Source: Deltaproteobacteria bacterium (GTDB lineage: Bacteria > Desulfobacterota > Syntrophia > Syntrophales > UBA8958). From it: a DNA stretch of 64,000 nt. Positions 25,943-56,605 of the stretch are shown piece after piece; the first letter of the stretch is position 1; each line of letters begins with the position of its first letter. Location of the stretch: contig JAPLJZ010000247.1 in NCBI GenBank assembly GCA_026388335.1, positions 1,233 through 65,232 on the forward strand. Direction: 5' to 3'. The translations under genes were made by a program, and so were the position numbers. The notes under the pieces are model-generated. The model saw nothing but the letters and a program-made list of their open reading frames with translations. It was not told the origin of the DNA and searched no databases.

Positions 25943-26210
25943 TCTTTAAACCGTCCGCTTCCGCAATGGCAAATTCTTTTGATAGAACGGCACATTCCTT
26001 ACGGATGGCGGGATCAGCCGCCATCCGTGCCATTGACTCTTCAAAGGACCGCTTCTTTCGTTGGGTAACGAAATCCTGCAACGCCACCGTTACGAGACGG
26101 TTTAAATTTTCACGCAACTCAGGAGGAGCAACGGTGAGTACTTCTTCAATGAGTTTGTAAGGCAGCGCCACGCTGCGGCGAACGGTCTTGGGTGATGGTT
26201 CTGATTTCAT
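25935..26210 (-). CDS. RHH-type antitoxin partner of the MazF-like toxin
   Basis: KTVRRSVALPYKLIEEV...LVTVALQDFV (ribbon-helix-helix). ATG at 26210 sits behind GAAAGGA; the track ORF starts at a TTG at 26231. Confidence 0.6.
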   Translation of the reverse strand: MKSEPSPKTVRRSVALPYKLIEEVLTVAPPELRENLNRLVTVALQDFVTQRKKRSFEESMARMAADPAIRKECAVLSKEFAIAEADGLKND

Positions 26211-26231
26211 GTCACACATCCTTTCACACAA

Positions 26232-37086: not shown

Positions 37087-38685
37087 TCATCCCGCCGCGG
37101 CATAGAAGTCCTTGATTTGATCCGCAACATACCGGATCTGTCTTTCATCAAGTTCCGGGTACATGGGCAGGGAGAGAATCCTTTTCGCCCCGGCTTCCGC
37201 AATCGGAAAATCACCGGTTTTATATCCCAGGTGCTGATAGGCAAGTTGGAGATGCAAAGGCGTCGGATAGTGCAGCCCCGTCGCGATGCCCTTTTCCAGA
37301 AGGTATTTCTGCAAAGCCTCACGCCTGACTGCCTGAATTACAAACAGGTGATAGACGCTGTAAACATTTTCTCTTTCCGTCGGGACCTGCACCTCCTCAA
37401 CATCTTTCAGGAATTCGCGATATAAAGCGGCATTGACCCGGCGTTTCTCCGTCCATTCCGCCAGATATTTCGCCTTCACGGAAAGCACCGCTCCCTGGAA
37501 GGCCTCCATCCGGTAATTATGACCGATCACCTGATGCTGATAACGCTGTATTTCCCCGTGCTGTCGGATCATCCTGGCCTTTTCATATAGTCCATCATCA
37601 TTGGTGATCAATGCCCCCGCCTCGCCATAAGCCCCCAAGTTCTTACCGGGGAAAAAACTGAAGGCGCCAAAAGCCCCAAAGTTCCCAACCGGTTTCTCTT
37701 GATATCGCGCCAAATGCGCCTGGCAGCAGTCTTCCACAATCGTTAAACCATACTGATCAGCCAATGCGCCGACGGCCTCCATATTAGCCGGCTGCCCGTA
37801 GAGATGCACAGGAATAATCGCCTTAATTTGAATATTCCCGCCCCCTTGACGGGGGAGGTCTGGGTGGGGGTGAAAATGGGGATGCCCTTCCATTAATTCC
37901 CTCACCTTCTCAACATCAACATTATAGTATTCATCGCAATCCACAAAAACCGGCGTAGCTCCGCAAAGCGACACCGCCTCGGCAGTAGCGATAAACGTAT
38001 TCACCGGCAGGATCACCCCATCGCCAGGTCCAATCCCCGAAGCCAGCAGGGCGATATGCAAGGCGTCCGTCCCGCTGGAGAGACCGATGCAATGCTTCGC
38101 CCCCTGCATCGCGGCGAATGCACCTTCAAATTCCTCCACATACTTCCCCAGGATAAAGGCCGTATTGGCAATAACATCCGTGAGTTTGTCATCAATTTCG
38201 TTATATGTTCGATGATGCTGCGCCTTCAGGTCGACAAATGGAACAGATGAAACCAAAGGATTGTTATTCGTCTCCTTGAAAAGCGAGACAAATTCGGCAG
38301 GTGTGAAAGCCGGCACAGGAGAACCCTGAAAATGCCTTGTGTTGCGGGTGATGATGTAATCCAGATTGAACTGGCTGGCCGCTGCCATCTTCATGTTGTC
38401 TTCAAAATCCGGAGATAACGACGCATTGGCCTCCGTGAGGGTAGATTTCCGGACCGGTAGGACGGAAAGTGAGCGCAGGTTCGTGAATATCTTGTTCCGC
38501 GCGACAAGTTCATCAAATTCCTTTTTCAGGTAGTAGTGCACCGTCGAATAAGAATCCGCGCTCAACCACCCTTCCACCTTATTCAAGGCGCAGAGATTCA
38601 GGACTGCAAAGCTGTCGAGATAAAACTCACGCCGGGGAAGCAGAATATCCAGAACCACATTGATATCGAGAAGTATCCTGATCAT
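37087..38685 (-). CDS. in-frame fusion of a PIN-domain toxin-like module (~150 aa) to a DegT/DnrJ/EryC1 sugar aminotransferase
   Basis: N-terminus MIRILLDINVVLDILL...DFEDNM...IITRNTRHF (PIN). From VPFVDLKAQ onward it is DegT-like (GLSSGTDALHIAL, SFFPGKNLGAYGEAG). The ATG at 38685 forms an ATGA overlap with the stop of the upstream DUF104 gene. Confidence 0.8.
   Translation of the reverse strand: MIRILLDINVVLDILLPRREFYLDSFAVLNLCALNKVEGWLSADSYSTVHYYLKKEFDELVARNKIFTNLRSLSVLPVRKSTLTEANASLSPDFEDNMKMAAASQFNLDYIITRNTRHFQGSPVPAFTPAEFVSLFKETNNNPLVSSVPFVDLKAQHHRTYNEIDDKLTDVIANTAFILGKYVEEFEGAFAAMQGAKHCIGLSSGTDALHIALLASGIGPGDGVILPVNTFIATAEAVSLCGATPVFVDCDEYYNVDVEKVRELMEGHPHFHPHPDLPRQGGGNIQIKAIIPVHLYGQPANMEAVGALADQYGLTIVEDCCQAHLARYQEKPVGNFGAFGAFSFFPGKNLGAYGEAGALITNDDGLYEKARMIRQHGEIQRYQHQVIGHNYRMEAFQGAVLSVKAKYLAEWTEKRRVNAALYREFLKDVEEVQVPTERENVYSVYHLFVIQAVRREALQKYLLEKGIATGLHYPTPLHLQLAYQHLGYKTGDFPIAEAGAKRILSLPMYPELDERQIRYVADQIKDFYAAAG
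37837..37882. repeat. family-B GC-hairpin repeat inserted in frame in the aminotransferase
   Basis: CCCGCCCCCTTGACGGGGGAGGTCTGGGTGGGGGTGAAAATGGGGA, read as HPHFHPHPDLPRQGGG. Confidence 0.8.
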
Positions 38686-38969
38686 CGATGCTTCCTCCAC
38701 AGGTGCTCCCGGTAGGCCTCCCTGTCGTATTTTCCCGGTGGCTGTCTCAGAATGCCCACCAATTCCAAAATATCCTTGCTGACTTCCATCCCCGGAAAAT
38801 TCTTCTGAAAATAGCTTCTGGCCTCCCCCTGATAAAGATTCACATGCTCCTCGGATGTGTGGGGTTTTTCATCACTGATCACAACAACGGCATCGGAATC
38901 CCCGTCCAGTTGCAATGGCTCGACAGGAACGAATACGCCATCTTTGTATTTTACTGAAATAACCTGCAT
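38682..38969 (-). CDS. DUF104 (AF2212-like) antitoxin-type protein, C-terminally extended
   Basis: MQVISVKYKDGVFVPVEPLQLDG..AVVVI is the DUF104 signature. Translationally coupled to the PIN fusion. Confidence 0.6.
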   Translation of the reverse strand: MQVISVKYKDGVFVPVEPLQLDGDSDAVVVISDEKPHTSEEHVNLYQGEARSYFQKNFPGMEVSKDILELVGILRQPPGKYDREAYREHLWRKHR

Positions 38970-38996
38970 TGTTAAAAACCTCCTTTACTAATTATG

Positions 38997-39480
38997 CTAA
39001 TTCCCCAAGAACATTTCCGCTACTTCTTCGACGAGATCTTTTGATTTCATCAAAGAGGTACCACCCCGGTACTTCTTCTTTAAGCGAATCAGGGGAATTT
39101 TCTCCATTTCATCCAAACGAACCATCCGGCCCCTTTCGATCAGGTGGCGATCAACGGCGGCCAATTTACCTTTGAACAGGGAATAAGTGGGGGTTCCCAG
39201 CACCGCCGCTTCCCGGTTCATGCTCCCAACAAAGCAATCCGGATTCGATACGACGTGTTCAAGGGCGGCTTCAAACAGGGGGTTCTCAAAATGATGATAC
39301 AAAGCCCGTGTGGCAGGAAGCCTCATAACAGCAAGAATTTTCCCCGGCGATATCTTGAGCCTGGAAAGGTAATCTTCAACGGGCGCAAAGTCCGCCAGAT
39401 AAATCTCTTCATTCGTTCCCTAATTTCTTACCGCCATGCTCACCGGTCGGCACATGCTTCGTGCGAAAAAGATTGATGAA
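38997..39480 (-). pseudogene. DUF354-family gene remnant, copy 1 (about the last 160 codons, frameshifted upstream)
   Basis: EEIYLADFAPVEDYLSRLKISPGKILAVMRLPATRALYHH...GSMNREAAVLGTPTYSLFKGKLAAVDRHLIE... No N-terminal half. Frame break near 39400. Confidence 0.55.
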
Positions 39481-39482
39481 CT

Positions 39483-40328
39483 TCATTCGCCCAATCCTTT
39501 CAGCAGCATGCGAACAAATCCCACTACATCCGCTTGGATATCATCATCGGGAGCTCCATGTATAAACTCAGAAACTCTTCGGGGGCCAAGGCCATCCTGG
39601 TTTAGAAAGTCACGCTTAAGAATATCAATGGTTTTTCTGGTTTCAGAGTCCTTAAGCAGGGGCCGAAGCCTGTCAACAACGTCCCCTATCCCGGCCCCAT
39701 AATTGCGAAGCACATAAAAAAGATCATAGGCATCCTTGTTTTCCCCGCGGCCATCGAACGCAAGGGTTTTCAGGACAGTATAAGCCCCGGGACCACAAAC
39801 CCATATCCTACGTGAGGCCTCCTCACCGATAATGGTTTTGCCTGAGAGCGTGATCTGTTGCCGGTCAATGAAAGCCAGTCGAAGACCGGGGGTGACAATG
39901 GCCGCAAAATCGGACTGAATGTGTTTCAACCTGCCGCCCTGATCTCTGTCGTCCGACGGAGGGATGAGAAAGTCCACCGTAACATGTCCGAAGTCCTTGA
40001 TCTTCCATCGTTGATTCGTCAAACGCCCTTCTTCATTTGTATCCGGGACGAACCCGGCCCGCCGGAGGCGTTCCGCAAGGGCTTCGTACCGTTTCTCATC
40101 AAAGATCGCCAGGCTCAAGCCGACATCCAGATCCATCGTACCCACATGAGTATCGGTCTCCGGAGAAAGGGTTGACTGGTCGATGATGAGTGAAGGAACA
40201 AGCCCGCCCACCACCACAAGCTCATCCATCAGGTCGCCCAGCTTCGTTGCTATAAAAAGACAAACAGCCCGAACAAGAGCCACCTGTTTCGGAACATAAT
40301 CGGATGCCCGTGTCGGTTTAGCGATCAC
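39483..40328 (-). CDS. nucleotidyltransferase-fold protein (AbiEii/MNT-like toxin candidate)
   Basis: LVVVGGLVPSLII...THVGTMDLDVGLSL fits the hG[GS]-x(n)-DxD NTase pattern. 11-bp overlap with the upstream wHTH gene. Confidence 0.45.
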   Translation of the reverse strand: MIAKPTRASDYVPKQVALVRAVCLFIATKLGDLMDELVVVGGLVPSLIIDQSTLSPETDTHVGTMDLDVGLSLAIFDEKRYEALAERLRRAGFVPDTNEEGRLTNQRWKIKDFGHVTVDFLIPPSDDRDQGGRLKHIQSDFAAIVTPGLRLAFIDRQQITLSGKTIIGEEASRRIWVCGPGAYTVLKTLAFDGRGENKDAYDLFYVLRNYGAGIGDVVDRLRPLLKDSETRKTIDILKRDFLNQDGLGPRRVSEFIHGAPDDDIQADVVGFVRMLLKGLGE

Positions 40329-41373
40329 TCGTCCTCCAGTTCAGGAAATCTTTACGGAGTTTTTCGGCAGCCTCTGCGGACCTTTCCGGATGATCCTTGA
40401 GATCGAGGTAAACCTGAACCGGATGAACGCAACGGATGCCTGCGACTTCACCGGCGCCATGAAATACCCCCTCGTCCTTGGGTTCAATCAGCCATACGTT
40501 GCCACCCCGAGGTTCCTCTTGAAAGCCGATCTCTGCCAACCAGGACGGCGACGGAGCCTCATTCAGGTAAATGCTTGCAGTGCGATATGCCGCAAAATGG
40601 GTGTAGAGCCAGGCCGCACCAAGGCCGGTGGCGGCATATGCGATCCCTCGATTTTGACAGTCGGCCGCCAACCGCTGTAACGCCTCTTCGCCGGTTCGCG
40701 CCGCTATATGACCTCGTATCCATGCATGCGCCTGTATTCGGTACATCTCCCTCCATGATTCCATGAGCGCTGCGGGATCCTGCACCAGCAAATTTCCCGA
40801 CTTATCGCGCCGGATCAAACCTTCATTTACCATTCGGGAGACGATCCGGCTTACAAAGCCCTCGTCCATGCCGACGGTCCGGGCCAATTCCCGCTGGGGG
40901 AAAGACTTTCCCGGATGGATGAGGAGCCAGCGGGCGATCCGCGAGCTTTTAGGTGCAAATATATCGGCCGGCCGGCCTCTGACATTGAAGCGGTTGGGAC
41001 GTCCTTCGACACGGACATGAAGTCCCGAACCCATGATCCGTCCGTTGCCGGAAAGGTCGAACCAGCCGATGCCGGCCTCTTCACAGACGGTGCGTCCGGC
41101 TGAACCCATAAAAGGGACGCAAATGACAGGCACGGCTTGTACGTCTATAGGAAGCGACAGCTTCCGGTGTTGCTCGATCGCCGTTTTCATAGGGATAATC
41201 GAACTGGACGACTTGTACACCACGACAAATAGTTTACCCAACGCCTGAAGAGCCAGATCCACGCCGGGAATCGGTTGGGCAGCAAGGACGGCATCAGGCT
41301 CGATGCCCAAAAGCTCGGAAAATACCTGGGTTGCGCCGGCTAACCAATTATTATGTTTACTTTTGTCACTCAT
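40318..41373 (-). CDS. winged-HTH regulator with AbiEi-like C-terminal domain and an extra N-terminal domain
   Basis: SFPQRELARTVGMDEGFVSRIVSRMVNEGLIRRD (MarR-like wHTH). The C-terminal VQVYLDLKDHPERSAEAAEKL resembles AbiEi antitoxins. Confidence 0.45.
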   Translation of the reverse strand: MSDKSKHNNWLAGATQVFSELLGIEPDAVLAAQPIPGVDLALQALGKLFVVVYKSSSSIIPMKTAIEQHRKLSLPIDVQAVPVICVPFMGSAGRTVCEEAGIGWFDLSGNGRIMGSGLHVRVEGRPNRFNVRGRPADIFAPKSSRIARWLLIHPGKSFPQRELARTVGMDEGFVSRIVSRMVNEGLIRRDKSGNLLVQDPAALMESWREMYRIQAHAWIRGHIAARTGEEALQRLAADCQNRGIAYAATGLGAAWLYTHFAAYRTASIYLNEAPSPSWLAEIGFQEEPRGGNVWLIEPKDEGVFHGAGEVAGIRCVHPVQVYLDLKDHPERSAEAAEKLRKDFLNWRTSDR

Positions 41374-41381
41374 GCTTGACT

Positions 41382-41401
41382 AAATAAGGCAACTTGATCG
41401 A
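41382..41401 (-). promoter_or_regulatory. palindrome ACTTGA-N8-TCAAGT just upstream of the wHTH gene (possible operator)
   Basis: Arms at 41382-41387 and 41396-41401. The centre contains GATCGATC. Confidence 0.25.
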
Positions 41402-41447
41402 TCAGTCAAGTGAAATAATTTACTCATATCTCTCCGTTTATTCCTCC

Positions 41448-41649
41448 AAAAACATTCCCGCTACCTCTTCGACAAGATCTTTTGATTTCATCAGCGAGGA
41501 GTCACCCCGGTCCTTCTTCTTCAGGCGAATCAAGGGAATTTTCTCCATTTCATCCAAATGAACCATCCGGCCCTTTTCGATCAGGTGGCGATCAACGGCG
41601 GCTAATTTACCTTTAAACAGGGAATAAGTCGGCGTTCCCAGGACCGCCG
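41448..41649 (-). pseudogene. DUF354 remnant, copy 2 (last ~66 codons)
   Basis: Reads AAVLGTPTYSLFKGKLAAVDRHLIEKGRMVHLDEMEKIPLIRLKKKDRGDSSLMKSKDLVEEVAGMFLEE*. DNA is ~85-90 percent identical by eye to copies 1 and 3. Confidence 0.6.
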
Positions 41650-41738
41650 CCTCCAGTTCAGGAAATCTTTACGGAGTTGTTCGGCAGCCTCCGCAGACCT
41701 TTCCGGATGATCCTTGAGATCGAGGTAAATCTGAACCG
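41650..41738 (-). pseudogene. duplicated 3-prime end of the AbiEi-like gene fused to DUF354 copy 2
   Basis: The 89 bp match 40333-40421 with about 5 mismatches. Reads VQIYLDLKDHPERSAEAAEQLRKDFLNW in its own frame. Confidence 0.7.
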
Positions 41739-41756
41739 TGCATTAAGTTTTGTGTC

Positions 41757-41803
41757 CCCATATTCCCCCCCCATATTCCCCCGGCCTTCGCTGGGATGAC
41801 AGG
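41757..41803. repeat. tandem CCCATATTCCCCC x2 followed by a family-C-like core (ATTCCCCCGGCCTTCGCTGGGATGACAGG)
   Basis: Direct reading. Compare GGATTCCTGCCTTCGCCGGAATGACGA at 13593-13619. Confidence 0.6.
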
Positions 41804-41816
41804 AAAGTGTAGATTT

Positions 41817-42245
41817 TCAAAGGTCCCTCTGGCGGAAGGCGGCGGCGGTCATGATGGGGATATTACGGAAACTGCCGAGAGTGAGGAGATCTTTGTCTCC
41901 GCTTATGATGCAATCGGCGCTTGCGGCCACGGCGCAGGACAGGAATGGATCATCCGCCGGATCCCGGCACACGCTAAGGATCGCTTCCCCAATCTCGACT
42001 ACTTCGCAAAAAGGCAGTACCTCGTCTTCGATGAGGGCGGCGATTTCCTGAATCGTCAGAGAAAATTTCGGATATGAGAGGACCCTCCTAAACTCGTCAA
42101 AGGTTTCGCGCGAAAAAACCGGAACAAATGCGCCGGATTTCCAACCTTCGACGATCCATCCCAGCTCTCCGGAAAAAAGCAGCGCGGAAACAAGGACATT
42201 CGTGTCCAGAACGACCCGGATCACGTCTCTTTCTTTCTCGCCCAA
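41817..42245 (-). CDS. PIN-domain toxin (TIGR00305-like)
   Basis: IRVVLDTNVLVSALLFSG...CAVAASADCIISGDKDLL. Confidence 0.8.
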   Translation of the reverse strand: MGEKERDVIRVVLDTNVLVSALLFSGELGWIVEGWKSGAFVPVFSRETFDEFRRVLSYPKFSLTIQEIAALIEDEVLPFCEVVEIGEAILSVCRDPADDPFLSCAVAASADCIISGDKDLLTLGSFRNIPIMTAAAFRQRDL

Positions 42246-42460
42246 CGGATTGCGTCGGTCACCTCGTCCGGCGTTATCCCGAGTTTCTCCATCTTCTTAC
42301 GGATCCCATCCAGATTGGCGCCCAAGGGCTGCATTCTTACGGGCGCCAGGAGGATACGCCCATCTGCCACGGCGACATCGAAATACGTGATCCCCTGGAA
42401 CTCTTTAACAATGTCCCGTGGTAGCGTAAGCTGATTTTTTGTGGTGAGTTTGGCAAGCAT
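42221..42460 (-). CDS. AbrB/SpoVT-family antitoxin
   Basis: MLAKLTTKNQLTLPRDIVKEF (SpoVT-AbrB swapped-hairpin motif). Overlaps the PIN gene by 25 bp. Confidence 0.75.
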   Translation of the reverse strand: MLAKLTTKNQLTLPRDIVKEFQGITYFDVAVADGRILLAPVRMQPLGANLDGIRKKMEKLGITPDEVTDAIRWARKKET

Positions 42461-42612
42461 TCCTTACCTCCTTACAACAAGGATACATTCCATTCGAACA
42501 TCCGTCAAGAAAAAACACGCAAGCTGTCAAGAACAAGCGAGGAAGTGTCTCATTTACATTGGTACATGAGGGAGGGTGAATAAAGAGGTTTCTGTCCCTA
42601 TTTTCTCCAATT

Positions 42613-43011
42613 TTATCGCCAGTCTTCCAGATGCAGGTCAACAACTCTTTCAAATTCTTTGGTGTTGTTAGTCACCAATATCATGTCTCGTGATCGGGCA
42701 AGACCTGCTATTAGAAGATCATAAGGTCCAATTGATATTCCTTTCTTTTCAAGTTGTGCACGAATGGCTGCGGCTTCAATCGCAGCGGAACGATCCAGGT
42801 CAATAATGTTCAATGGCAGAAGGAATTTGTCAAGAGCATCCTCGGAACGTTGCCTGAATTGACTTTTTTCAACCCCGTATTGAAGCTCAAAGAGGGTGAT
42901 TGTGGAAATTGCAACATCCTGTGGTGAATGTTCCCGGAATCGCTCAAGAATCTCTGGTGAGTGTTTTTTGATGAGATAGATGCAAATATTGGTATCAAAC
43001 AGATAGCGCAT
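42613..43011 (-). CDS. vapC: VapC-type PIN ribonuclease toxin
   Basis: MRYLFDTNICIYLIKK...LVTNNTKEFERV. Abuts vapB with a 1-nt coordinate overlap at 43011 (ORF-track coordinates). Confidence 0.9.
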   Translation of the reverse strand: MRYLFDTNICIYLIKKHSPEILERFREHSPQDVAISTITLFELQYGVEKSQFRQRSEDALDKFLLPLNIIDLDRSAAIEAAAIRAQLEKKGISIGPYDLLIAGLARSRDMILVTNNTKEFERVVDLHLEDWR

Positions 43012-43241
43012 CAGAAGGATTCTCTTTTCTGCATGTCTGGTTGATTACGCCCGTCTTTCATGAAATCTTCCGGAAATTCACTGAGCGATTCAAACAACGG
43101 GTCCCATGTCGTTTCTATGGGCTCCAGAATAACATGATTGCCTTTCCTAAATATTTTTACCTCATTTCCGGGAATTCTGAATTCCTTGGGCAGCCTTACT
43201 GCTTGAGAACTCCCATTCTGAAACAACTTTGCTGTATCCAT
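43011..43241 (-). CDS. vapB: VapB antitoxin (AbrB/MazE fold)
   Basis: MDTAKLFQNGSSQAVRLPKEFRIPGNEVKIFRKGNHVILEP. Confidence 0.85.
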   Translation of the reverse strand: MDTAKLFQNGSSQAVRLPKEFRIPGNEVKIFRKGNHVILEPIETTWDPLFESLSEFPEDFMKDGRNQPDMQKRESF

Positions 43242-43245
43242 TTTA

Positions 43246-43572
43246 TCACCTCTCTATTTCGTATATATTTTTAGTATATACACCAATGATCGTAAAATCA
43301 AGGAACATTTCCGCGACTTCTTCGACAAGATCTTTTGATTTCATCAATGAGGAACCATTCTGATCCTTCTTCTTCAGGAGAACCAGGGGAATTTTCTCCA
43401 TTTCATCCAAATGAACCATCCGGCCCTTTTCGATCAGGTGGCGATCAACGGCGGCCAATTTTCCTTTGAACAGGGAATAAGTGGGGGTTCCCAGCACCAC
43501 TGCTTCCCTGTTCATGCTCCCGCCACCGCTGATTAAGAGCCCCGCGTGGTACATGGGATTGGGTCTGTCCAA
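43246..43572 (-). pseudogene. DUF354 remnant, copy 3 (last ~100 codons), abutting the AT-rich cassette
   Basis: HAGLLISGGGSMNREAVVLGTPTYSLFKGKLAAVDRHLIEKGRMVHLDEMEKIPL... Only 18 bp separate it from the stop of the upstream GT4 gene. No N-terminal half is present. Confidence 0.6.
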
Positions 43573-43590
43573 GGCGTGATCGGTGTATCG

Positions 43591-44703
43591 CTATGCAAAC
43601 GAATGATAGAGTTCATCATACTGCTGTGCTAAATTATCCCATGAAAACTTGCCACGCACCCAATTTTGTGCTTTTAATCCCATCGCTTTAACTATCTCAG
43701 GATTTTGCATAGCCCATTCAATTTTTGACTTTAAATCATTCGAGTCGTCAACTTTAAAAAATAAAGCATGATCATTATCTAATACAGCCTTATTCGCATG
43801 AATATTGCTACATATTATTGGAACACCGAGCGCTGCCGCTTCCAACAAAGCCATTGACATTCCTTCGCTGATTGATGGCATTATAAATAAACTACACATC
43901 TTGATTATCCCAAACAAGGCGTATTCATTAGAAATAAACGGTATGTAGATTACATTCTCATTTGACATGGATTTTAGCATTCGAGAATATGCGGGATGTG
44001 CTTGTGATAGATCTCCAATGATAATTAATTTTTTTGTACTGCCTAATTGCTGAAAAGCACCCAGCAGAACATGCGCACCTTTTAGAGGAATAATCCTCCC
44101 TGCAACAAAAACGAAATATTCATCCGTATCAATATTTAAGCCGGAATTTTTTAAAATCTTTTTTGACTCAGCAAGATCCACCTTTTCTTCATCATCAATT
44201 CCATTAGGAATATAATGGACGATACGATGGCATTTCATACTCAAATACCGTGCATCAATCGCGGAAACACTTGTGCTGGCGCTGGCCAGTTGAGCAAATA
44301 AATATTCGATCGAGTTTAATAAAAGAACAGCAAAAGAATTCCACTTATTTCCTTTGGTAAATCTTCCATGGGCCGTTGCTATCACAGGATATTTAAAGCG
44401 AAGAATTGGTAGGACGATACTTGCTTCTATATTATGCAGATGTATTAAATCATATTTTCTGAATAATATTGCATGGAATGCTGCAATCAGATCAACGGTT
44501 AGCATTCTAAATACTTTTCCAGGTAAACCTTTAATCCTTATAAGTTCAACATTTTGTAATTTGAAATTTGGGGGTGTATAATGACTGCTGCAGTAGACTG
44601 TCACTTGATGGTTTACAGAAATTCTTTTTACGAGGGCTTCAACGACACGTTCCGCGCCGCCTTTTGATGGTAAACCCTTTATGCCAATATAGGCTATTTT
44701 CAA
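43591..44703 (-). CDS. GT4 glycosyltransferase
   Basis: KIAYIGIKGLPSKGGAERVVE... and a C-terminal EGMSMALLEAAALGVPII (E-x7-E region). The track ORF runs to 44844; TTG at 44703 gives the usual GT4 N-terminus. Confidence 0.8.
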   Translation of the reverse strand: MKIAYIGIKGLPSKGGAERVVEALVKRISVNHQVTVYCSSHYTPPNFKLQNVELIRIKGLPGKVFRMLTVDLIAAFHAILFRKYDLIHLHNIEASIVLPILRFKYPVIATAHGRFTKGNKWNSFAVLLLNSIEYLFAQLASASTSVSAIDARYLSMKCHRIVHYIPNGIDDEEKVDLAESKKILKNSGLNIDTDEYFVFVAGRIIPLKGAHVLLGAFQQLGSTKKLIIIGDLSQAHPAYSRMLKSMSNENVIYIPFISNEYALFGIIKMCSLFIMPSISEGMSMALLEAAALGVPIICSNIHANKAVLDNDHALFFKVDDSNDLKSKIEWAMQNPEIVKAMGLKAQNWVRGKFSWDNLAQQYDELYHSFA

Positions 44704-44725
44704 TTTCTGGACCGGTATAGCGTTG

Positions 44726-47173
44726 TCAAGGCTGTTTAAACATTGATAGAACAAATTCAAGATTCGTTGATAAAGCACGTGAAGATCCATACAATAAGGG
44801 ATTAGACACCCAATCAGGTGAACCTGCAAATTTATCGACGGCAATTTTCGTTTTCATCATTTCTTGTGTTATATTCTCAATCTGACGGACATTTTGCTGT
44901 GAACCAAGTTTTTTCATAAGAGCCGCTAGTGACAATTTCGTTTCTTCTTTTCCGACAACCTTTGCGGCAGCGTTCAGGTCGCGCAAGACTGTCTCAATAC
45001 TTGTTACGGTTCTTTCAATATGCTCTTTAATAATTGCATCCAAAGATCCTATTTGTATAATTGTCACATCGCCTGCTGATAAAAATACGTCTTTTAACTG
45101 AATCTGTGTTTCTGAGACCGATAATTTCAGAAATGTGTGTCCCAGAACATCAACAGCGTAGACAGGCCGAGAACCGACTCTTATTTTTCTTGCATCAACA
45201 AATAAGTCAAAATTAGTTCTGTCCTTCCCACTATTTAAACAAGTAAACCGTAAGGTATTATTCTCTCCATAGCCAAATCGCTCAACGAAAACGTCAGGTT
45301 TCGAGGAAACAGCATAAGTCAAAGGCTCCCAGCCTGCCCGGGAGGTTTGAACAATTGGCTGTAAATAGTCCCGAAAGAGCTGTTGATCTCTCTTCTGCAT
45401 ATCAGACTTGTAAAATTCATAACGTTGCCAATCGTCACCTTTCTTCTCGGCGCCGCCATTCATCGCAGGATAAAAACCGTAAAAAAGCGAGCGCCCTAAG
45501 TATTGCTTAACCATGTCGTGGTTGAATTTCTGAATTCCCGTCATGAGAAGCAAATATGGTTTCTTATACGAAAAAGCCCGCCGAAAAGAGAGCCGTGAAT
45601 CTGGCTCCGGTGTCATCTGATTTGGCGCTGTCGCCCACCAGACCTCGGTTCCGGGTATATCAATCAAGTGATTATAAAATCCAAAACTTGCCCGCATGGC
45701 GCCATTACACATTGTTAGCAAACCAGCATGAGAAATTGAGGTGTTTAGCCAAGAAAGATATTCATAGTTAGTTAATAAATTGAAAATCGCCACTTTCTTG
45801 TTCTTGCTCGAGAAGGTAAGCGGAAAATCAGTGAACTTGAAATGGTCGCGCCGAAAATTTAGGTAATTACCCGTATATTCAGGAGAACCATCGATATAAA
45901 TACCGTCGTATTTGGCAACATTTTTTAAATATTCATTCGCAGAATACCTGGCCGCGTTAATCCCCTTAGAATTTACCGTCGGCAATTCCGGGGCACAATT
46001 CAGTGGGAACCAGCCACCGTAACTCCAAGATTCGTCCTTAAAAGAGCCTATCACGCGCCCACTCTCATCATGTAATGCGCTTGAAAGGGTGGCGCCATTT
46101 TTATGAGGCCCTGGTTTATTGCCCGTCTCTTTTAAATAGGACAATACATCATCGTAACTATATTTCTTTCCCTTTGGCATATGCAGCCAGAAATCCCATG
46201 GTTCATCATAATAAAAGCTTTTGATGTCGTTCTGCCTATCGAATTCCAATGCCTTCGCGTCAACCGGCTGTTCGTGAAAACCAATTTGAAAATCTTCCCA
46301 GTTAGGAATATCCTCTATTCTGCCAAAATTCTTCCAGATGCCTTCTTTCTTGACACGTTTTTCAAACCATTGAGGGTACATTTCATAGTATTTTTTCAAA
46401 GCCGAACGCATACCCCAAGCAGGTTCATCAATTTTATAAAGTATGAATCTGATTTTTACCGTAGATGGAATCTTGGAATCTTTCGTGAGACCAATATCAT
46501 AACGAATGATCAACTGCTTTGATTGGCTATCATAGATCAAACGATACACAGCGGGGCTATCCATTGGTAGGCCAAGCGCTAATCCTACTTGATCGTTTGA
46601 AATCGCTGACCAGCAGTATCGTGCCATTTTTCCAGACTCGCCTGCAGGAACAGTGACGCTCTCTTCATAAATCTTTCCAGCTTCAATCTTACGCTTTTCC
46701 CTAAGATGGTCATACCAATACCATCCGAGCGCATCGATGGGCAAGGCAAACCCAACTGCCAGCGACCGATCCAATTTTGACAGGGATGTTAACGTCAAAT
46801 CGAACATAATTTTCTTGGCATCGGTTCGGATTTGGGCAAGAAGGTTAAGTTGAAGCGCTGGGCTACTGGCTACAAAGACCGCATCTGTTTTTGAACCTTC
46901 CATTTTGCCTCTGAACCATTTTGTTTCACTGCCACTTGCTATATCCTTGGCATAGAACCCACCGATACCTTTGACCTGCGAGCCCTTGTCATCAAAGTCA
47001 GTGCGACTTACGTTTCCATTTTCATCAAATTGGATCGATAGACCGTCACCGGTTTGTATCTTAATCGCGGCGAAACAAACACCCGCACAAAAAAAGAATA
47101 TGAAGACACTAAAAAGAAGAATACGAAGTTCTTTGTGATTTTTAAAAACGCGATAAATAGAAATAGTATGCAT
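44726..47173 (-). CDS. large (815 aa) N-terminally anchored hypothetical protein
   Basis: ATG at 47173 behind AGGTGG. TM/signal segment LRILLFSVFIFFFCAGVCFAA. Trp/Tyr-rich body (possible glycan-binding or hydrolase-like) with no motif I can name. Confidence 0.5.
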   Translation of the reverse strand: MHTISIYRVFKNHKELRILLFSVFIFFFCAGVCFAAIKIQTGDGLSIQFDENGNVSRTDFDDKGSQVKGIGGFYAKDIASGSETKWFRGKMEGSKTDAVFVASSPALQLNLLAQIRTDAKKIMFDLTLTSLSKLDRSLAVGFALPIDALGWYWYDHLREKRKIEAGKIYEESVTVPAGESGKMARYCWSAISNDQVGLALGLPMDSPAVYRLIYDSQSKQLIIRYDIGLTKDSKIPSTVKIRFILYKIDEPAWGMRSALKKYYEMYPQWFEKRVKKEGIWKNFGRIEDIPNWEDFQIGFHEQPVDAKALEFDRQNDIKSFYYDEPWDFWLHMPKGKKYSYDDVLSYLKETGNKPGPHKNGATLSSALHDESGRVIGSFKDESWSYGGWFPLNCAPELPTVNSKGINAARYSANEYLKNVAKYDGIYIDGSPEYTGNYLNFRRDHFKFTDFPLTFSSKNKKVAIFNLLTNYEYLSWLNTSISHAGLLTMCNGAMRASFGFYNHLIDIPGTEVWWATAPNQMTPEPDSRLSFRRAFSYKKPYLLLMTGIQKFNHDMVKQYLGRSLFYGFYPAMNGGAEKKGDDWQRYEFYKSDMQKRDQQLFRDYLQPIVQTSRAGWEPLTYAVSSKPDVFVERFGYGENNTLRFTCLNSGKDRTNFDLFVDARKIRVGSRPVYAVDVLGHTFLKLSVSETQIQLKDVFLSAGDVTIIQIGSLDAIIKEHIERTVTSIETVLRDLNAAAKVVGKEETKLSLAALMKKLGSQQNVRQIENITQEMMKTKIAVDKFAGSPDWVSNPLLYGSSRALSTNLEFVLSMFKQP

Positions 47174-47175
47174 AT

Positions 47176-48015
47176 TTATCCACCTAAGCCCCATAGTCGC
47201 CTCAGTTTCTTGCGCAGTGGGATCAGTTTTTCATCCCAGAGAAAAGATTCTGGCAAAGAGTGTATTAAACGGTCGATGATATACCTTGTGTATAGCCCTG
47301 CATATATTTTATGGCTGTGTTTATAACTTATAGTTAATGTTTCATGCCACATTTTCCAGCGGCTGTTTTGGCTTTTAGAATTCTGATGCACCCTGAAGGC
47401 GGCCAAGAATTGGTCTATGAAACGCAATGGATAGCACTTGGCAACCTTAATACAAAAGTCGTAATCAGCAGCGTATTTATATGCTGTGTCAAAAAAACCA
47501 ATGTTCTTCAAGGCAGATCTCCGTACAAGCATGGCCCCGGTAAAAATATTGTTTCCATGTCTAATTAGCCGATCATAGTCAGTTAGCCCAGCCCGCAAAT
47601 GATCAACGGGAATACCTTGTTCGGAGAGCCTAACACTACCCCCGTAGGCGAGAGCGCTCTCAGGATGTGCGTTTAATTCACCTACAAGCGTTGAGATTGC
47701 ACCAGGATATAACACATCATCTGCATTAAGGTATCCCAGATAATCACCCTTGGCGTTATGCCACCCTTTGTTGACAGCATCATAAAGGCCTTGATCTGGT
47801 TCGCAAATCCAACCAATTCTTCCTGAATAATCACGCAATATATCCAACGTATCATCGGTGGAGCCACCATCCAGGACAGTATATTCTACCATAGGATAGT
47901 CCTGGGCTAACACACTATCAATGGCTGCGCGGATATATGCACCATGGTTTAGAGATGGTGTTACTATCGAAACCGTGCAAGATGCCGTTGTGGTCGCTTT
48001 ACTAAGTAGAGTCAT
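47176..48015 (-). CDS. GT2 glycosyltransferase
   Basis: VSIVTPSLNHGAYIRAAIDSVLAQDYP...VLDGGSTDDT...LNADD. Confidence 0.85.
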   Translation of the reverse strand: MTLLSKATTTASCTVSIVTPSLNHGAYIRAAIDSVLAQDYPMVEYTVLDGGSTDDTLDILRDYSGRIGWICEPDQGLYDAVNKGWHNAKGDYLGYLNADDVLYPGAISTLVGELNAHPESALAYGGSVRLSEQGIPVDHLRAGLTDYDRLIRHGNNIFTGAMLVRRSALKNIGFFDTAYKYAADYDFCIKVAKCYPLRFIDQFLAAFRVHQNSKSQNSRWKMWHETLTISYKHSHKIYAGLYTRYIIDRLIHSLPESFLWDEKLIPLRKKLRRLWGLGG

Positions 48016-49046
48016 TTCGGTAGTTTGACATATAGATTATGTAAAGTTTGTATTTCTAAGTTGACTATATGCGCAAAATTAAAGGTTCGGGCACTCAGAT
48101 GGGCATTACTTGAAAGTCTTTTTCGCAAATTTGAATCTTTAAGCAAACAATTCAGTGAACCAGCCAAAGCGTCAACATCACCAGGCGGAAATAGAAGCCC
48201 TGTTTCTCCGTCGATAATAGCATCACTATTCCCAGGCACATTGCTTACTATACATGCTGCTCCACAAACCATGGCCTCAATTAGAGACTTTGGGTGTCCT
48301 TCCATTGTCAGCGTGGGCAAGACAAAAATTGCGGCAGACTGCATTAGTTCCAAAACATCGGCATTAGATACACGCCCCTTGAATTGGACATCGGTCAGCC
48401 CTAACGCTTCTGCTTGGGCGCATAGTTTCTCTTCTTCCTCACCGGCACCACAAATGACTAACCGCGCATCAGGGTGGAGAAGCTTCACGCGAGCAAAGGC
48501 ATCTATAAGGACATTTATGCCTTTAATCCAGTTTAGTCGCCCAGCATATAAAATTAAATGATTATTTCGCACAACTTCTTTAGAGGCTAAAGCCACAGAG
48601 CTTAAATCAACCCAATTAGGCAATAAGATTGTCTTTTTTGCATAAACTGTTTGGATTTTCTCCTCAAGCCATTTAGCGGTTACAAGGACAAGATCAGCGG
48701 GCCACAATGCAAGTCTCTCCAAGAGAGGAGCCAACAAGTATTTCAACCCTTTCTTATCATTCATGCGAGTTCCCTCAGCATAATCAAACTGATAGGTCAC
48801 CATCATCGGTCTGCGAGAGAGTATCTTTACGAGAGGTAAAGTCGGGATATTGCTGCCAAATACCTTAATTACACCTTTCATGCGTGGAGCTTTCCATACA
48901 AGCCAGAGGTAAAAAACCAGATGTCGCCAACCAAATGTTTTCGGTAGCCAAGGAACCGGATTATGCGAGACACCTAATTCCTTGGCGTATGCGTCCTCGT
49001 CACATGTATATAAGACCACATCAAATGTTTTGGCATACTCCTGCAA
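48012..49046 (-). CDS. GT4 glycosyltransferase (frame stays open upstream to 49136)
   Basis: EGHPKSLIEAMVCGAACIVSNVPG (GT4 C-terminal motif). The N-terminal ~30 codons upstream of the track TTG look genuine (KPILTIIQSTHASLRGIKEVG). Confidence 0.8.
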   Translation of the reverse strand: MQEYAKTFDVVLYTCDEDAYAKELGVSHNPVPWLPKTFGWRHLVFYLWLVWKAPRMKGVIKVFGSNIPTLPLVKILSRRPMMVTYQFDYAEGTRMNDKKGLKYLLAPLLERLALWPADLVLVTAKWLEEKIQTVYAKKTILLPNWVDLSSVALASKEVVRNNHLILYAGRLNWIKGINVLIDAFARVKLLHPDARLVICGAGEEEEKLCAQAEALGLTDVQFKGRVSNADVLELMQSAAIFVLPTLTMEGHPKSLIEAMVCGAACIVSNVPGNSDAIIDGETGLLFPPGDVDALAGSLNCLLKDSNLRKRLSSNAHLSARTFNFAHIVNLEIQTLHNLYVKLPK

Positions 49047-49166
49047 TAACCTTCTGTGTCTCTCAAGCAGTCCAACTTCTTTGATGCCACGTAATGATGC
49101 ATGGGTTGACTGAATAATCGTTAAAATTGGCTTCGTTATATTCCTCCTGCTTAAAACCTAATGAGG

Positions 49167-50543
49167 TCAAAGGGGCTTCGTTTCATCAATGACAAGTTTA
49201 AACTTACCGGCCTTAGTCAAGGCAATTTTCTCCACTTGCTCAATATCATACTCGATTTTCCCTTCAAGATGCGGGGCTATTTGTCTACGAATTAGGTCAA
49301 GTTCCACTTGAGATAAGTGCGGTGACGCCTGAATCCGGATCGTAATGCGGTTAGGGGTTACTTTGGCGATTTGATATTGTTGAATCTTGGGTAACTGGCT
49401 GATTAGACTGGAGCCAAAAAAGCTGGGAACTAAAAGAGCGCCACCCGTTGGTGTCGTGATCAAATCGGCGGTTCTTCCGGCGATTTTCTTTAATGTTGCC
49501 CAGTGACGACCACAACTGCAAGTTTCATTAGCCAGCACTGCCAGGTCGCCAACTTTATAACGAATGAATGGCATACCATAGTTATCGAGGTTGGTAAGTA
49601 CCAACTCCTTGAACTCATCCCCGCCACAATCGGCGTACTCAACGATTACATGTGGTTCCACAATGTGATAAAACCCGCCCGCTTTGCATTGATAGGCTAC
49701 GCCCGAGATTTCCCCTGATCCATAACCATCATAAACTGGTCCGAAAACTTCACCAATCATTGCGCGTTGAAAATCGTAGACGGTTTCAGCGGTTGTCAGC
49801 ACACCCTTACACGCCAGCCCGCCCACACCAAACTCCTTTGCCTTAAGCGCTAAAAAGTAGATAGCGTTCGGATAGCCATTCAGATAATCAGGCCGCCAGT
49901 CATGGATGGTTTTGAGGGCATCTCTGACGTGCCGGTCGTCAGTGAGCAGATACGCCCCAATCCGCTTGTTCCTATAAGCCCATTGCTTTAGCCGGCTATG
50001 CCATGTCGTCCATTGTTCCTCGACCGTAATACGATTGCCCCATACGGTGACATTACGCGCCCCGAAGCGATAACCAGCCATCTCCCAACCAATACGTTCA
50101 GCACCAAAAGCTGCGCCAATGGCCGTTCTCGTACGATAGCTAACCACGACCTGCCCTGTTGAGCCGCTGGATGCGCCTTTTTTTAAAGTCTCTATACTGT
50201 GGTCGGTTGATATCAAGTCTTGAAGATTTTCAAGGACATCTTTTCTTGTCAAAAATGGCAGCTTTGAAAGATCGCCCGGTTCCCGAATATCATCTGGAAC
50301 GATTCCAGCTTTTTTCATCGTACGGTGATAGTAAGGCACTGTCTGATAAGCATGTTGAATTAGTCGCTTTAACGCCGCTTGCTTATATCTATCGTTTTCT
50401 TCTCGTGACCACCATTGAGCCTTACGATAAAAGCGGAAGAATTTATTGATGGGAACGCGGCGAAGCAAATCCTCACCGGGGAACAAGATGTTATATGCAA
50501 TCAGACTACGCAGCGAAGAAGGCAACATGTATGAACGCCTCAA
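49167..50543 (-). CDS. adenylate-forming enzyme, phenylacetate-CoA ligase / CapK / F390-synthetase-like
   Basis: QHAYQTVPYYHRTMKKAGI...DLSKLPFLTRKDV...SSGSTGQ (AMP-binding P-loop analogue). Confidence 0.7.
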   Translation of the reverse strand: MRRSYMLPSSLRSLIAYNILFPGEDLLRRVPINKFFRFYRKAQWWSREENDRYKQAALKRLIQHAYQTVPYYHRTMKKAGIVPDDIREPGDLSKLPFLTRKDVLENLQDLISTDHSIETLKKGASSGSTGQVVVSYRTRTAIGAAFGAERIGWEMAGYRFGARNVTVWGNRITVEEQWTTWHSRLKQWAYRNKRIGAYLLTDDRHVRDALKTIHDWRPDYLNGYPNAIYFLALKAKEFGVGGLACKGVLTTAETVYDFQRAMIGEVFGPVYDGYGSGEISGVAYQCKAGGFYHIVEPHVIVEYADCGGDEFKELVLTNLDNYGMPFIRYKVGDLAVLANETCSCGRHWATLKKIAGRTADLITTPTGGALLVPSFFGSSLISQLPKIQQYQIAKVTPNRITIRIQASPHLSQVELDLIRRQIAPHLEGKIEYDIEQVEKIALTKAGKFKLVIDETKPL

Positions 50544-51724
50544 TATAATAGTTTCTTGAGAATCGGTGTGGCGCCCACTTGCCTCAACAGTCGTCGCAAC
50601 TGAGCGTATGGCCAGACTTCCCGGTGCGCATTTAATGCATACGTTACGAATAAACGGCTTATTGTTTTTGATTCCCCTACCTGATGTAGGCCCATCCGCA
50701 AAAGACGCGTGGGGTCAGGGCTATCAAACACATTACTGCTACCTTTAGCAGTAGTGGCAACGTAACCAACGTGCAAGGCCATCGCATGTGTATCTTCATT
50801 CCACCCACCGTTAGGCCAACAAAGGTAAGAAACAGGTTTTGAGAGGTGGTTTTCTATGATTTGCTTTGATTCAGCCAATTCATACTTAAGGCGTAAGAAG
50901 TAATCAGTCTCTGTTTCTCGCTTATATACCACTGAATGCTGCTTCGTGTATTGCTGTGAAACTGAAAACAATTCCTGTCTCCAGTCGAATCGGGAAAAGA
51001 ATGCAGCCCCCCCGTGAAGCCTGACATAGTTAACAATATAGTTTGTCAAAGTGCCGTCTTCATCAACACGGCGGGCCACAATAGCTTGCGATGATTCGTA
51101 AACAGGCGTGCCGAAAGACACCAAACCCTCCTGATCTTGCGTCATGTAAAATGGTTTAACCATTTTATCTGCATTCCATTTTAGCCAGATCCAGAAATCG
51201 TCCGGATAGTGAAAATCTACGATCTGATCGGTTATCGGATAAAAGGTGTGAGTCATCGTATGAGACTCAACATCAATAATTCCGCTCTTTTGCATTTCCT
51301 GCAATTCCGCCCATGAAAGGAATCCATCACTAACCAAAGCGGCTGTATCAGAATGGCCTGACCAACAGTCTTCTAAGTTTGGTCGTACATCTGTCTCTCC
51401 CAGGATAAATTCCGGACTGACAAAGATCGTAGCCCGAAACCCATGCTTCCGGAGTAGTGGAAAGGCAAAAACCCAATTGTCCAAATAGCCGTCGTCAAAG
51501 GTCAGACAGACGCTTCGTGCGGGCAAACTTTTGATTCCTTTCTTATGCGCTATTATTTCATCTAACGAAGCCACATAATAATCATTTTTCTTAAAATATT
51601 CTAACTGACGGATGAAATAAGGCAGTTCCAATGTTAAATGGGAATATACCCATTTTGGATTCCTTGCCGGCCGTACAGAATGATACATAATAATTGGTAC
51701 CGGATGGGATTTCATCAACTCCAC
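50540..51724 (-). CDS. polysaccharide deacetylase (NodB homology domain)
   Basis: PIIMYHSV...CLTFDDGYLDNW...ATIFV. Confidence 0.8.
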   Translation of the reverse strand: MELMKSHPVPIIMYHSVRPARNPKWVYSHLTLELPYFIRQLEYFKKNDYYVASLDEIIAHKKGIKSLPARSVCLTFDDGYLDNWVFAFPLLRKHGFRATIFVSPEFILGETDVRPNLEDCWSGHSDTAALVSDGFLSWAELQEMQKSGIIDVESHTMTHTFYPITDQIVDFHYPDDFWIWLKWNADKMVKPFYMTQDQEGLVSFGTPVYESSQAIVARRVDEDGTLTNYIVNYVRLHGGAAFFSRFDWRQELFSVSQQYTKQHSVVYKRETETDYFLRLKYELAESKQIIENHLSKPVSYLCWPNGGWNEDTHAMALHVGYVATTAKGSSNVFDSPDPTRLLRMGLHQVGESKTISRLFVTYALNAHREVWPYAQLRRLLRQVGATPILKKLLY

Positions 51725-52818: not shown

Positions 52819-52886
52819 TTTGAAATCACTGAGCACGCATTTGGCGCTTTCACATGCTACGATAGAATAATCCTAACCACCTGAAT

Positions 52887-54128: not shown

Positions 54129-54238
54129 AGCGAGAAAACTTACATTGACAAATGGTTTTTCAATTTCATACGTATAGGCACCGAACGAAACATAGAGATA
54201 ATGCTGCTACAATCATTGAGGCGTAATCAATATTATCG

Positions 54239-55279: not shown

Positions 55280-55367
55280 GCGCGTTTAATCGACCCCTTA
55301 CGTGGACATAACATCATTTCATAAAGTCTTCGACGATCTTACTCTTAGGTCCGTGGTTTTTTAAAGT

Positions 55368-56561: not shown

Positions 56562-56605
56562 AACCTTATGTTTTGTAATCCTTCATAAAAAATAATATTC
56601 CATTC

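Follow-up and report, generated by a model that had tools for sequence, protein, structure and literature searches.

The 64,000-nucleotide (64-kb) stretch analyzed here, referred to throughout as the window, is part of an 89-kb contig in the metagenome-assembled genome (MAG) 'Deltaproteobacteria bacterium' (locus tags NTV58_). Profile searches of its open reading frames (ORFs) indicated that a single exopolysaccharide locus fills almost all of the window, with products that include CpsB, a Wzc-like kinase, Wza, a Wzy_C protein, sugar-nucleotide enzymes and many glycosyltransferases. The GC fraction is 0.47–0.57 up to ~43 kb and 0.35–0.46 to the right of ~43 kb, and an island of toxin–antitoxin and AbiE-like cassettes separated by direct copies of one gene fragment, the 3′ end of a DUF354 gene (PF04007), is positioned on this step. 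An earlier note on this DNA, made from the letters alone, had set the island at the border of a conserved and a variable half, and the measured step in composition is real. The genes of the island lie on the minus strand, and 'downstream' therefore means lower coordinates in what follows.

Three direct minus-strand copies of the DUF354 3′ end were found, at 38997–39475 (copy 1), 41440–41654 (copy 2) and 43301–43583 (copy 3). Alignment by blastn matched 39009–39227 to 43303–43521 at 91.3% identity (E 4e-85), 39000–39213 to 41440–41654 at 89.8% (E 5e-78) and 41451–41654 to 43304–43507 at 88.7% (E 2e-71), so that the three same-orientation repeats judged by eye at ~85–90% in the earlier note do exist, at a measured 88.7–91.3% over ~215 nucleotides (nt) and far beyond chance. 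Each copy matches the Pfam DUF354 profile at positions ~258–345 of 349 (E 5e-11, 2e-8 and 1e-14), short of a domain that spans ~340–350 residues and of the full-length relatives of 335–340 amino acids (aa) in the related loci L018, L024, L027 and L031 (loci and contigs are numbered with the prefix L). The three window copies are pseudogene remnants, and the three ORFs entered in the record as 'DUF354 domain-containing' or hypothetical should be read as remnants of genes.

The copies were trimmed to different extents. Copy 1 consists of three pieces with at least two internal deletions between them: aa ~42–62 (39416–39475), which directly follows the AbiEii-like stop at 39483, aa ~158–215 (39227–39419), and aa ~263 to the end (38997–39227). 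The deletion with its junction at 39227 is an in-frame loss of 132 nt. Of the three copies, copy 1 is the one that retains the ancestral junction to the DUF104 gene. As the remnant of a nearly whole gene, copy 1 departs from the earlier description of all copies as gene 3′ ends, and its 20-codon first piece is the one exception to the statement that the window lacks an N-terminal half of DUF354; no Epimerase_2 gene, the usual upstream partner of DUF354, was found in the window either. Copy 2 runs from aa ~268 to the end, and copy 3 from aa ~247 to the end, its 5′ part truncated by the join to the variable region; homology in copy 3 stops ~8 nt short of the natural stop, and the called ORF continues to 43246. 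Similarity among the copies ends no more than ~10 nt from the natural DUF354 stop codon in every case, but each begins at a different 5′ limit (aa 42, 268 and 247).

Between copies 1 and 2 lies a pair of AbiE-like genes. The upstream member (40318–41373, minus strand) encodes an AbiEi-like winged-helix antitoxin or regulator, with 29.9 bits to Pfam AbiEi_2 against a cut-off of 21, helix-turn-helix domains and the NCBI name AbiEi family. The following gene (39483–40328, minus strand) encodes a 281-aa protein that scores 16.2 bits to Pfam AbiEii, below the 22.5 cut-off; on the basis of gene order and its overlap with the AbiEi end, we regard it as a probable divergent AbiEii-type nucleotidyltransferase. 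A sequence search of the PDB with this protein gave no match and PADLOC gave no AbiE match, and the exact protein was found in several samples of the Logan assemblies. Between copies 2 and 3 are two further modules. The VapB antitoxin (43011–43241, minus strand; NCBIfam NF047862, 112 bits against a cut-off of 100; Pfam MazE_antitoxin) and the VapC PIN toxin of the tRNA(fMet)-endonuclease type (42613–43011, minus strand; NF047863, 174 bits against 140; Pfam PIN) overlap by one base, and with both proteins above equivalog cut-offs the pair is a VapBC type II toxin–antitoxin system. The second module pairs a PIN_3 family toxin (41817–42245, minus strand; Pfam PIN_3, E 1.6e-22; TIGR00305, 70 bits against a cut-off of 29) with an AbrB/MazE/SpoVT-like antitoxin candidate (42221–42460, minus strand), which overlaps the start of the PIN_3 gene, takes its name from the NCBI record and was without a match in the profile searches. 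Both proteins recur in Logan, the AbrB-like candidate exactly and the PIN_3 protein called there as a 135-aa product. The cassette assignments made earlier are thus borne out by profile cut-offs for VapBC, PIN_3 and AbiEi_2, with a weak match for AbiEii and no profile match for AbrB; the claim that each cassette has its own DUF354 fragment is contradicted by the VapBC and AbrB/PIN modules, which share one.

VapBC (42613–43241) is a very widespread cassette: clusters at 90% identity hold 141 members for VapB and 148 for VapC, on many metagenome contigs of up to 87 kb. A second VapC, MCX5824887.1, is ~93% identical and, judging by its accession range, apparently belongs to the same MAG. Downstream of the PIN_3 stop, and before the AbiEi′ remnant described next, there is a short tandem repeat, two copies of GGGGGAATATGG at 41745–41775 on the minus strand.

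A fourth repeat had escaped the earlier note. The terminal 89 nt of AbiEi (40333–40421) recur at 41650–41738 on the minus strand with 96% identity, as the 3′ end of a second AbiEi gene, AbiEi′, fused directly to copy 2. AbiEi′ carries QIYL...AEQLRK, as do the metagenome AbiEi alleles P0055 and P0057, whereas the resident gene has QVYL...AEKLRK. Because the variants of AbiEi′ match alleles from other metagenomes and not the resident gene, AbiEi′ and copy 2 together appear to be what is left of a second, foreign AbiE–DUF354 unit. The fusion lies at the imperfect microhomology GAAC(T/CG)GGA(G/A)G, with GAACTGGAGG followed by CGGCGG on the AbiEi′ side and GAACCGGGAAG followed by CGGCGG in DUF354, a footprint that either a deletion within the stacked array or a primary join could leave. 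The redundant genes of the second AbiE unit would have been removed by deletions, the downstream one closing at the GAACTGGAGG/GAACCGGGAAG microhomology.

The boundaries bear on one explanation of the island, in which a tyrosine or serine recombinase, since lost or encoded elsewhere, integrated small islets in tandem and site-specifically at an att site in the DUF354 3′ end. The 3′ ends of all copies within ~10 nt of the stop codon agree with such a site, and tandem accretion at one place resembles tandem islands at gene 3′ ends, in which direct 3′-end repeats likewise separate the inserted blocks at tRNA or protein genes. We nevertheless consider it highly improbable. Pfam searches found no integrase or transposase among essentially all non-overlapping ORFs of at least 90 aa in the 64-kb window, and none in the 10 kb beyond its right edge; the earlier note had advised looking just outside the window for one. 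The repeats are 215–480 nt long and 9–11% diverged with 5′ limits that vary between aa 42 and aa 268, microhomology and not a common core is seen at the junctions, and at the same hotspot in related contigs the inserts are flanked by duplicates of other genes (DegT and GFO). Unlike tandem islands, the window has no integrase in its scanned ORFs, no fixed att limits (5′ limits at aa 42, 247 and 268, 3′ limits scattered over ~10 nt) and no regenerated target, and its blocks measure only 1.6–2.4 kb. The first of two mechanisms offered in the earlier note, islands that integrate into a gene end and regenerate it, accordingly fails on the missing intact DUF354, the unfixed 5′ boundaries and the lack of a recombinase in the scanned ORFs.

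To place the copies relative to one another we compared seven close copies, three from the window and four from other contigs. Each pair differs at 17–27 of ~220 sites in a star-like pattern, and the window pairs, with 22, 22 and 26 differences, are no closer than pairs drawn from different genomes. Copies 1 and 2 (c1–c2) differ by 15 synonymous and 6 non-synonymous changes (ratio of non-synonymous to synonymous rates, dN/dS or omega, 0.10), c2–c3 by 17 and 9 (0.12) and c1–c3 by 10 and 11 (0.29), with dS among the window copies of 0.23–0.48. Binomial tests against neutrality gave p = 3e-6 for c1–c2, 4e-6 for c2–c3 and 0.011 for c1–c3, and c1–c2 and c2–c3 are also significantly below an omega of 0.5 (p = 0.0015 and 0.003), the expectation if one copy stayed functional while the other drifted. 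Omega is ~0.11 for variants shared between copies and ~0.30 for singletons, as expected if the copies diverged mostly as working genes and were relaxed recently. A fragment duplicated in place and then left to drift would not show this synonymous bias, which argues that the copies are not in-place duplications; rather, the three are distinct heterologous alleles and not fresh duplications of a target. The feature is real, and it is not an ordinary tandem duplication. The proposal that each event had duplicated the 3′ end of the target gene is thus at odds with distinct alleles that show no mutual closeness and differ mainly at synonymous sites, and with the near-complete gene from which copy 1 derives. 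One further argument was set aside, namely that fragments more conserved than their flanks prove horizontal spread, the comparators (DUF104 and a degraded DegT) being short or fast-evolving.

Related loci supply the context for these alleles. A scan of GTDB-representative genomes returned 2 loci only, which indicates that the clade is poorly represented among genomes, and a metagenome scan returned 25. In more distant relatives an intact DUF354 (335–340 aa) follows Epimerase_2, which is the uninterrupted state; the intact gene directly abuts Bac_transf–GFO–DegT in L021, L024, L027 and L028, lies behind a ~100-nt spacer in L025, and directly abuts DegT–GFO–Bac_transf in L026. L012 (GCA_025355175.1) has the order unrelated GT4 glycosyltransferase gene, one DUF354 remnant, DUF104, PIN-DegT, Bac_transf, GFO, which is the order of the window less AbiE, AbrB/PIN and VapBC, and serves as an empty site. 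Other contigs carry different modules. L006 and seven sibling assemblies show Epimerase_2, a frameshifted DUF354, a Phd/PIN pair, a second, 5′-truncated DUF354 piece and DUF104, with an internal deletion between two GAAATG repeats in L006b. L040 carries HigBA, Epimerase_2, a DUF354 remnant, MazE/PIN, a second remnant, VapBC and a deleted PIN-DegT, with two deletions in L040b, and L014, which carries two MazE/PIN pairs, shows a MazE/PIN different from that of L040, a DUF354 remnant and then the VapBC that L040 also has. With at least eight different inserted modules at the DUF354/downstream junction across related contigs, the idea that cassettes were added repeatedly at one site is well founded.

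Genes other than DUF354 are duplicated at the same junction. In L023 (4386–7735) a DegT remnant, a methyltransferase gene and an MNT/HEPN pair precede a full DegT, the two DegT copies being 69–73% identical; in L029 (10486–13595) a DegT 5′ remnant and an ATPase_2/DUF234 gene precede a full DegT at 87%; and in L034 (10511–10783) a DegT 5′ remnant lies between DUF354 and Bac_transf, with an IS21 copy ~4 kb upstream. L017 (2244–4643, from the Desulfobacteraceae MAG contig CAIVVZ010000527.1) has a DUF354 piece and a PIN-like/UPF0175 pair inserted 8 codons into an NTP_transferase gene. The DUF354 piece, of 99 nt and 88–91% identical to the window copies, lies just after the GFO gene, and ~1 kb, made up of GFO and the opening 8 codons of the gene after it, recurs beyond the insert at 88–97% identity, internally deleted so that the GFO remnant retains N- and C-terminal pieces; the NTP_transferase/DUF354 join shows a 9/10 microhomology (CTGGCTGCCG against TTGGCCGCCG). 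The gap after DUF354 is a recurrent landing place, and partial, diverged duplicates of junction genes are the rule there. Because identities of the duplicates elsewhere at the hotspot spread from 69–73% (L023) through 87% (L029) to 94–97% (L017), they argue against a single duplicate-at-insertion mechanism.

Such a mechanism is the core of the closest described kind of system, Kobayashi's insertion with long target duplication, known from restriction-modification complexes (Nobusato et al. 2000, Gene 259:99; Furuta, Abe & Kobayashi 2010, PMC2853133; review PMC3874152). These complexes are chromosomal units of the post-segregational-killing type that have no transposase or integrase, are flanked by long, variable direct target repeats of 46–423 bp that often overlap a gene 3′ end, occur mostly in naturally competent species, have an empty site in a relative, and as repeat-flanked units can amplify (PMC2853133, PMC3874152). 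The window resembles them in its addiction-type modules (VapBC, PIN_3 and AbiEi above cut-offs), in having no mobility gene in the scanned ORFs, in repeats of 215–480 nt (>30 bp) and in the single-copy empty site of L012. It differs in that the modules are toxin–antitoxin pairs, several of them stacked in tandem, in that the flanking copies are heterologous (89–91% identical, with synonymous bias) and not near-identical products of duplication, and in that the copies began as almost whole genes later trimmed by internal deletions. The window is a variant that works like this class and not a member of it. A strict version, in which each insertion duplicated the target in place and the copies then diverged within the lineage, would account for the addiction-type module flanked by long direct repeats without mobility genes, for the empty site and for the L017 flanking copies, which at 94–97% identity over 144–153 nt could stem from a fairly recent duplication. 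We regard it as unlikely for the window, where the copies are 9–11% diverged with dN/dS of 0.10–0.29 (two pairs below omega 0.5) and are not each other's closest relatives, where the AbiEi′ remnant is a foreign allele, and given that the L023 DegT duplicates are only 69–73% identical.

The array combines heterologous alleles, microhomology junctions and internal deletions in redundant copies, with no recombinase or attC-like repeat in the ORFs and repeat lengths examined, and on balance we favor its interpretation as an array of recombination scars at a hotspot, and not of site-specific insertions, in which remnant-plus-cassette units from related lineages were stacked and the redundant copies decayed. 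The second mechanism of the earlier note, unequal recombination, fits. Incoming DNA would be anchored in DUF354 or neighboring homology, while its other end would join out of register on another DUF354 copy, or illegitimately, an outcome that would put the donor copy next to the recipient copy, the donor cassette lying between the two. The DUF354 pieces themselves would be non-functional leftovers of once-functional alleles that still offer portable homology for RecA-type recombination between arrays. Cassettes may accumulate instead of replacing one another if loss of a resident toxin–antitoxin pair is penalized and recombinants that keep the pair survive, and internal deletions would be unable to reach the toxin–antitoxin genes or the downstream gene without cost, so that gene ends persist. 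These considerations suggest a ratchet in which addictive modules can be added and not swapped out.

The corresponding history, read from the oldest events downstream to the youngest upstream, might run as follows. The ancestral operon of the clade was presumably Epimerase_2–DUF354–DegT/Bac_transf, with selfish or defence modules landing in the short gap after the DUF354 stop codon. In a first step the DUF104/PIN module would have entered and its PIN domain fused to DegT, which would make DUF104 the oldest module at the DUF354/DegT junction. In a second, the AbiE pair would have been placed upstream of a DUF354 copy that is now copy 1. In a third, DNA of a related lineage (AbiEi′ and copy 2, with their different alleles) would have recombined out of register through DUF354 homology and stacked a second unit, after which deletions, at least one of them closing on microhomology, would have eliminated the surplus AbiE genes together with the 5′ portion of the DUF354 in question. 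A fourth step would have added a further unit, copy 3–VapBC–AbrB/PIN, and in a fifth the AT-rich glycosyltransferase block would have joined illegitimately inside copy 3, removing the rest of DUF354 together with Epimerase_2. Alleles in other contigs add detail to this exchange. The copy-1 deletion junction at 39227 is common to L040 and L042, which would point to ancestry shared between genomes, and L042 looks mosaic in pairing this junction with a DQN variant typical of copy 3 and of L017.

Several findings weigh against the scar-array interpretation. No donor genomes were identified, and the recombination events are inferred from footprints alone. Two large protein searches returned no intact DUF354 of the ~90%-identity cluster, which makes it less comfortable to suppose that the copies diverged as functional genes and were recently broken in every lineage. 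The copy-1-type deletion allele, present in three contigs, still differs by ~10% with a synonymous bias (13 synonymous and 10 non-synonymous differences between c1 and L042), and such bias among carriers of a deletion allele needs gene conversion or residual constraint. Finally, three independent 5′ breakpoints of DUF354 remnants fall within ~12 nt of one another at TTTTTGTnCCCGATCAC (window 43583, L012 ~7120 and L040 ~2515), which a purely random illegitimate process does not predict; they adjoin two unrelated GT4 genes and one internal-deletion junction, and the cluster could mark a hotspot of illegitimate joining or be a sign of selection on what follows.

The second possibility leads to a different account, in which the DUF354 segment is functional and under selection, either because it encodes a small C-terminal protein or because toxin–antitoxin cassettes carry it as an arm of homology for homing, through host recombination, into loci that bear DUF354. 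A strong synonymous bias is seen although all copies of the cluster are degraded, and each of the three window copies retains an ORF. The fragment ORF of L012 starts in overlap with the upstream GT4 stop (TGATG), and independent 2-nt deletions in L012 and L014 each bring an upstream start codon into frame. The L017 piece lies beside a toxin–antitoxin pair and away from any DUF354 gene, and identity between the window and L006 falls sharply at the DUF354 stop, from ~92–94% to ~75%. Weighed against this are the differing N-terminal limits (aa 42, 247 and 268), the absence of the GGGSMNRE motif from copy 2 and of the glycine loop from copy 1, the frameshifts in L006a, L042 and L040b, and the observation that the cassettes share no DNA with those of other contigs. 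A promoter and terminator scan gave 5 promoter-like sites where 5.3 were expected, thus no support for a promoter inside the DUF354 fragment, and an Rfam scan of 38–44.5 kb at E up to 1 returned a single sub-threshold chance match. We judge selection on the segment to be quite unlikely, and nearly as doubtful, perhaps a shade less so, is the specific form in which its ~200–300 nt are a selectively kept portable homology arm or small expressed protein within a recombinase-free mobile cassette system. What keeps this minority reading alive is the lack of an intact cluster member together with the synonymous bias, the TTTTTGTnCCCGATCAC breakpoints and the 2-nt deletions of L012 and L014. If a portable arm did exist, toxin–antitoxin cassettes would home into polysaccharide loci and stack there by host recombination machinery alone, and L017 would be a cassette that had carried its arm into a different gene.

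Because the window comes from a MAG, the array might also be an assembly chimera, in which alternative alleles of co-existing strains were threaded into a tandem arrangement through shared DUF354 k-mers. The exact VapB and VapC are recorded on the NCBI contig only and are absent from the Logan assemblies that hold neighboring genes (the DUF104, AbrB-like and 135-aa PIN proteins). The second, ~93% identical VapC can, by breaking short-read contigs at VapBC, explain the missing VapB and VapC records. Look-ups of the exact proteins for copy 3, VapB, VapC, PIN (142 aa) and AbiEi returned no record. Logan assemblies from other runs match 39175–40412 at 100% identity, which takes in the AbiEi end, AbiEii, copy-1 pieces and the 39227 junction, and contigs L001–L005 match the copy 1 region at 100%; a second Logan set matches 43469–57194 at 100%, including the GT4/copy-3 junction. 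Both sets end inside repeats, as short-read contigs do at true repeats. A chimera would need genuine reads that link a cassette end to a DUF354 5′ breakpoint. Counting against it, such joins exist and are unique (AbiEii stop/DUF354 aa 42, AbiEi′/copy 2 and GT4/copy 3), and independent Logan assemblies from other runs reproduce two of them at 100%. Interleaving of this kind was moreover assembled independently in L006 (at least eight assemblies), L014, L040 and L017, and we hold a chimera to be very unlikely. The middle of the array (40412–43469), without equally direct independent assembly support, is its least verified part and a further point against the stacking interpretation, for which the evidence overall is comparative and drawn from a MAG.

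For the mechanism of stacking, the nearest precedent is homology-facilitated illegitimate recombination, in which a homologous anchor and a join at 3–10 nt of microhomology import foreign DNA without an element-encoded enzyme. Single events of this kind have reportedly been shown experimentally in natural transformation (work said to be that of de Vries & Wackernagel and of Prudhomme et al., both in 2002). The order that this process predicts, donor anchor–foreign DNA–5′-truncated recipient copy, is the order seen in the window, although the window case is inferred from junction footprints and out-of-register exchange between repeats explains part of it equally well. The position of the array, where the conserved part of a polysaccharide locus meets its low-GC variable part, recalls the junctions of O-antigen and capsule loci, where gene remnants mark past exchanges of the variable block; to our knowledge, such loci are not usually described with serial toxin–antitoxin accumulation or with three copies of one remnant. 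An array of toxin–antitoxin cassettes separated by repeats also recalls integrons. Chromosomal integrons hold arrays of promoter-bearing toxin–antitoxin cassettes that are thought to stabilize the array against deletion (review PMC2654758). Unlike integrons, however, the window has no IntI in its scanned ORFs and no attI or attC-like inverted repeat at the lengths examined (none of at least 30 nt was found in 36–47 kb), and its repeats are coding remnants of a neighboring gene.

It is a long-standing question how toxin–antitoxin modules of chromosomes spread and accumulate when no transposase or integrase is at hand, and in the window and its relatives the footprints are legible: heterologous flanking copies, microhomology joins, decayed duplicate cassettes and an empty site. 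At the level of sequence comparison, these footprints point to host-recombination-driven stacking at the seam of a polysaccharide locus, and they would broaden the long target duplication pattern, described for restriction-modification systems, to include toxin–antitoxin modules. No paper describing the stacked-remnant pattern for toxin–antitoxin modules was found in a literature coverage that was incomplete, so that this is absence of evidence only, and none beyond a simulation study was found that links such modules to homology-facilitated illegitimate recombination. A literature search for 'DUF354' found only unrelated DUF354x families.

Flanking the array, the final gene of the AT-rich variable half encodes a GT4-family glycosyltransferase (43591–44844, minus strand; Pfam Glycos_transf_1 and Glyco_transf_4), whose stop lies 7 nt from the 5′ breakpoint of copy 3; this junction is 100% identical in Logan contig L046. 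On the downstream side, the DUF104/PIN module that the earlier note had recognized was found, with its PIN domain fused to DegT. The DUF104/AF2212-like antitoxin-type gene (38682–38969, minus strand; Pfam AF2212-like, 22.4 bits against a cut-off of 21.6) overlaps and precedes the fusion gene, and its synteny is shared with L012 and L006. The conserved half opens with a gene (37087–38700, minus strand) that encodes a fusion of PIN_3 (aa 8–122) with a DegT/DnrJ/EryC1 aminotransferase (Pfam DegT, aa 167–529). The same in-frame PIN_3-DegT fusion occurs in L012 (63% identity) and L020 (54%), which makes it a case of a toxin domain joined to a biosynthetic enzyme that several lineages have conserved, and DegT is unfused in L024, L026, L027 and L029.

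A second toxin–antitoxin pair lies elsewhere within the polysaccharide locus, at 25580–26231 on the minus strand, and consists of a MazF/PemK toxin (25580–25942) and an overlapping upstream 98-aa ORF without any family match. Beyond the window, the Logan contig ERR15302165_164336 (L043, 1–10000) shows that the locus continues beyond position 64000 for 10 kb or more and there includes genes of the ABC2_membrane, Wzt_C, GT2, Hexapep and DegT families, so that the cluster combines components of the Wzx/Wzy type with components of the ABC-transporter type.

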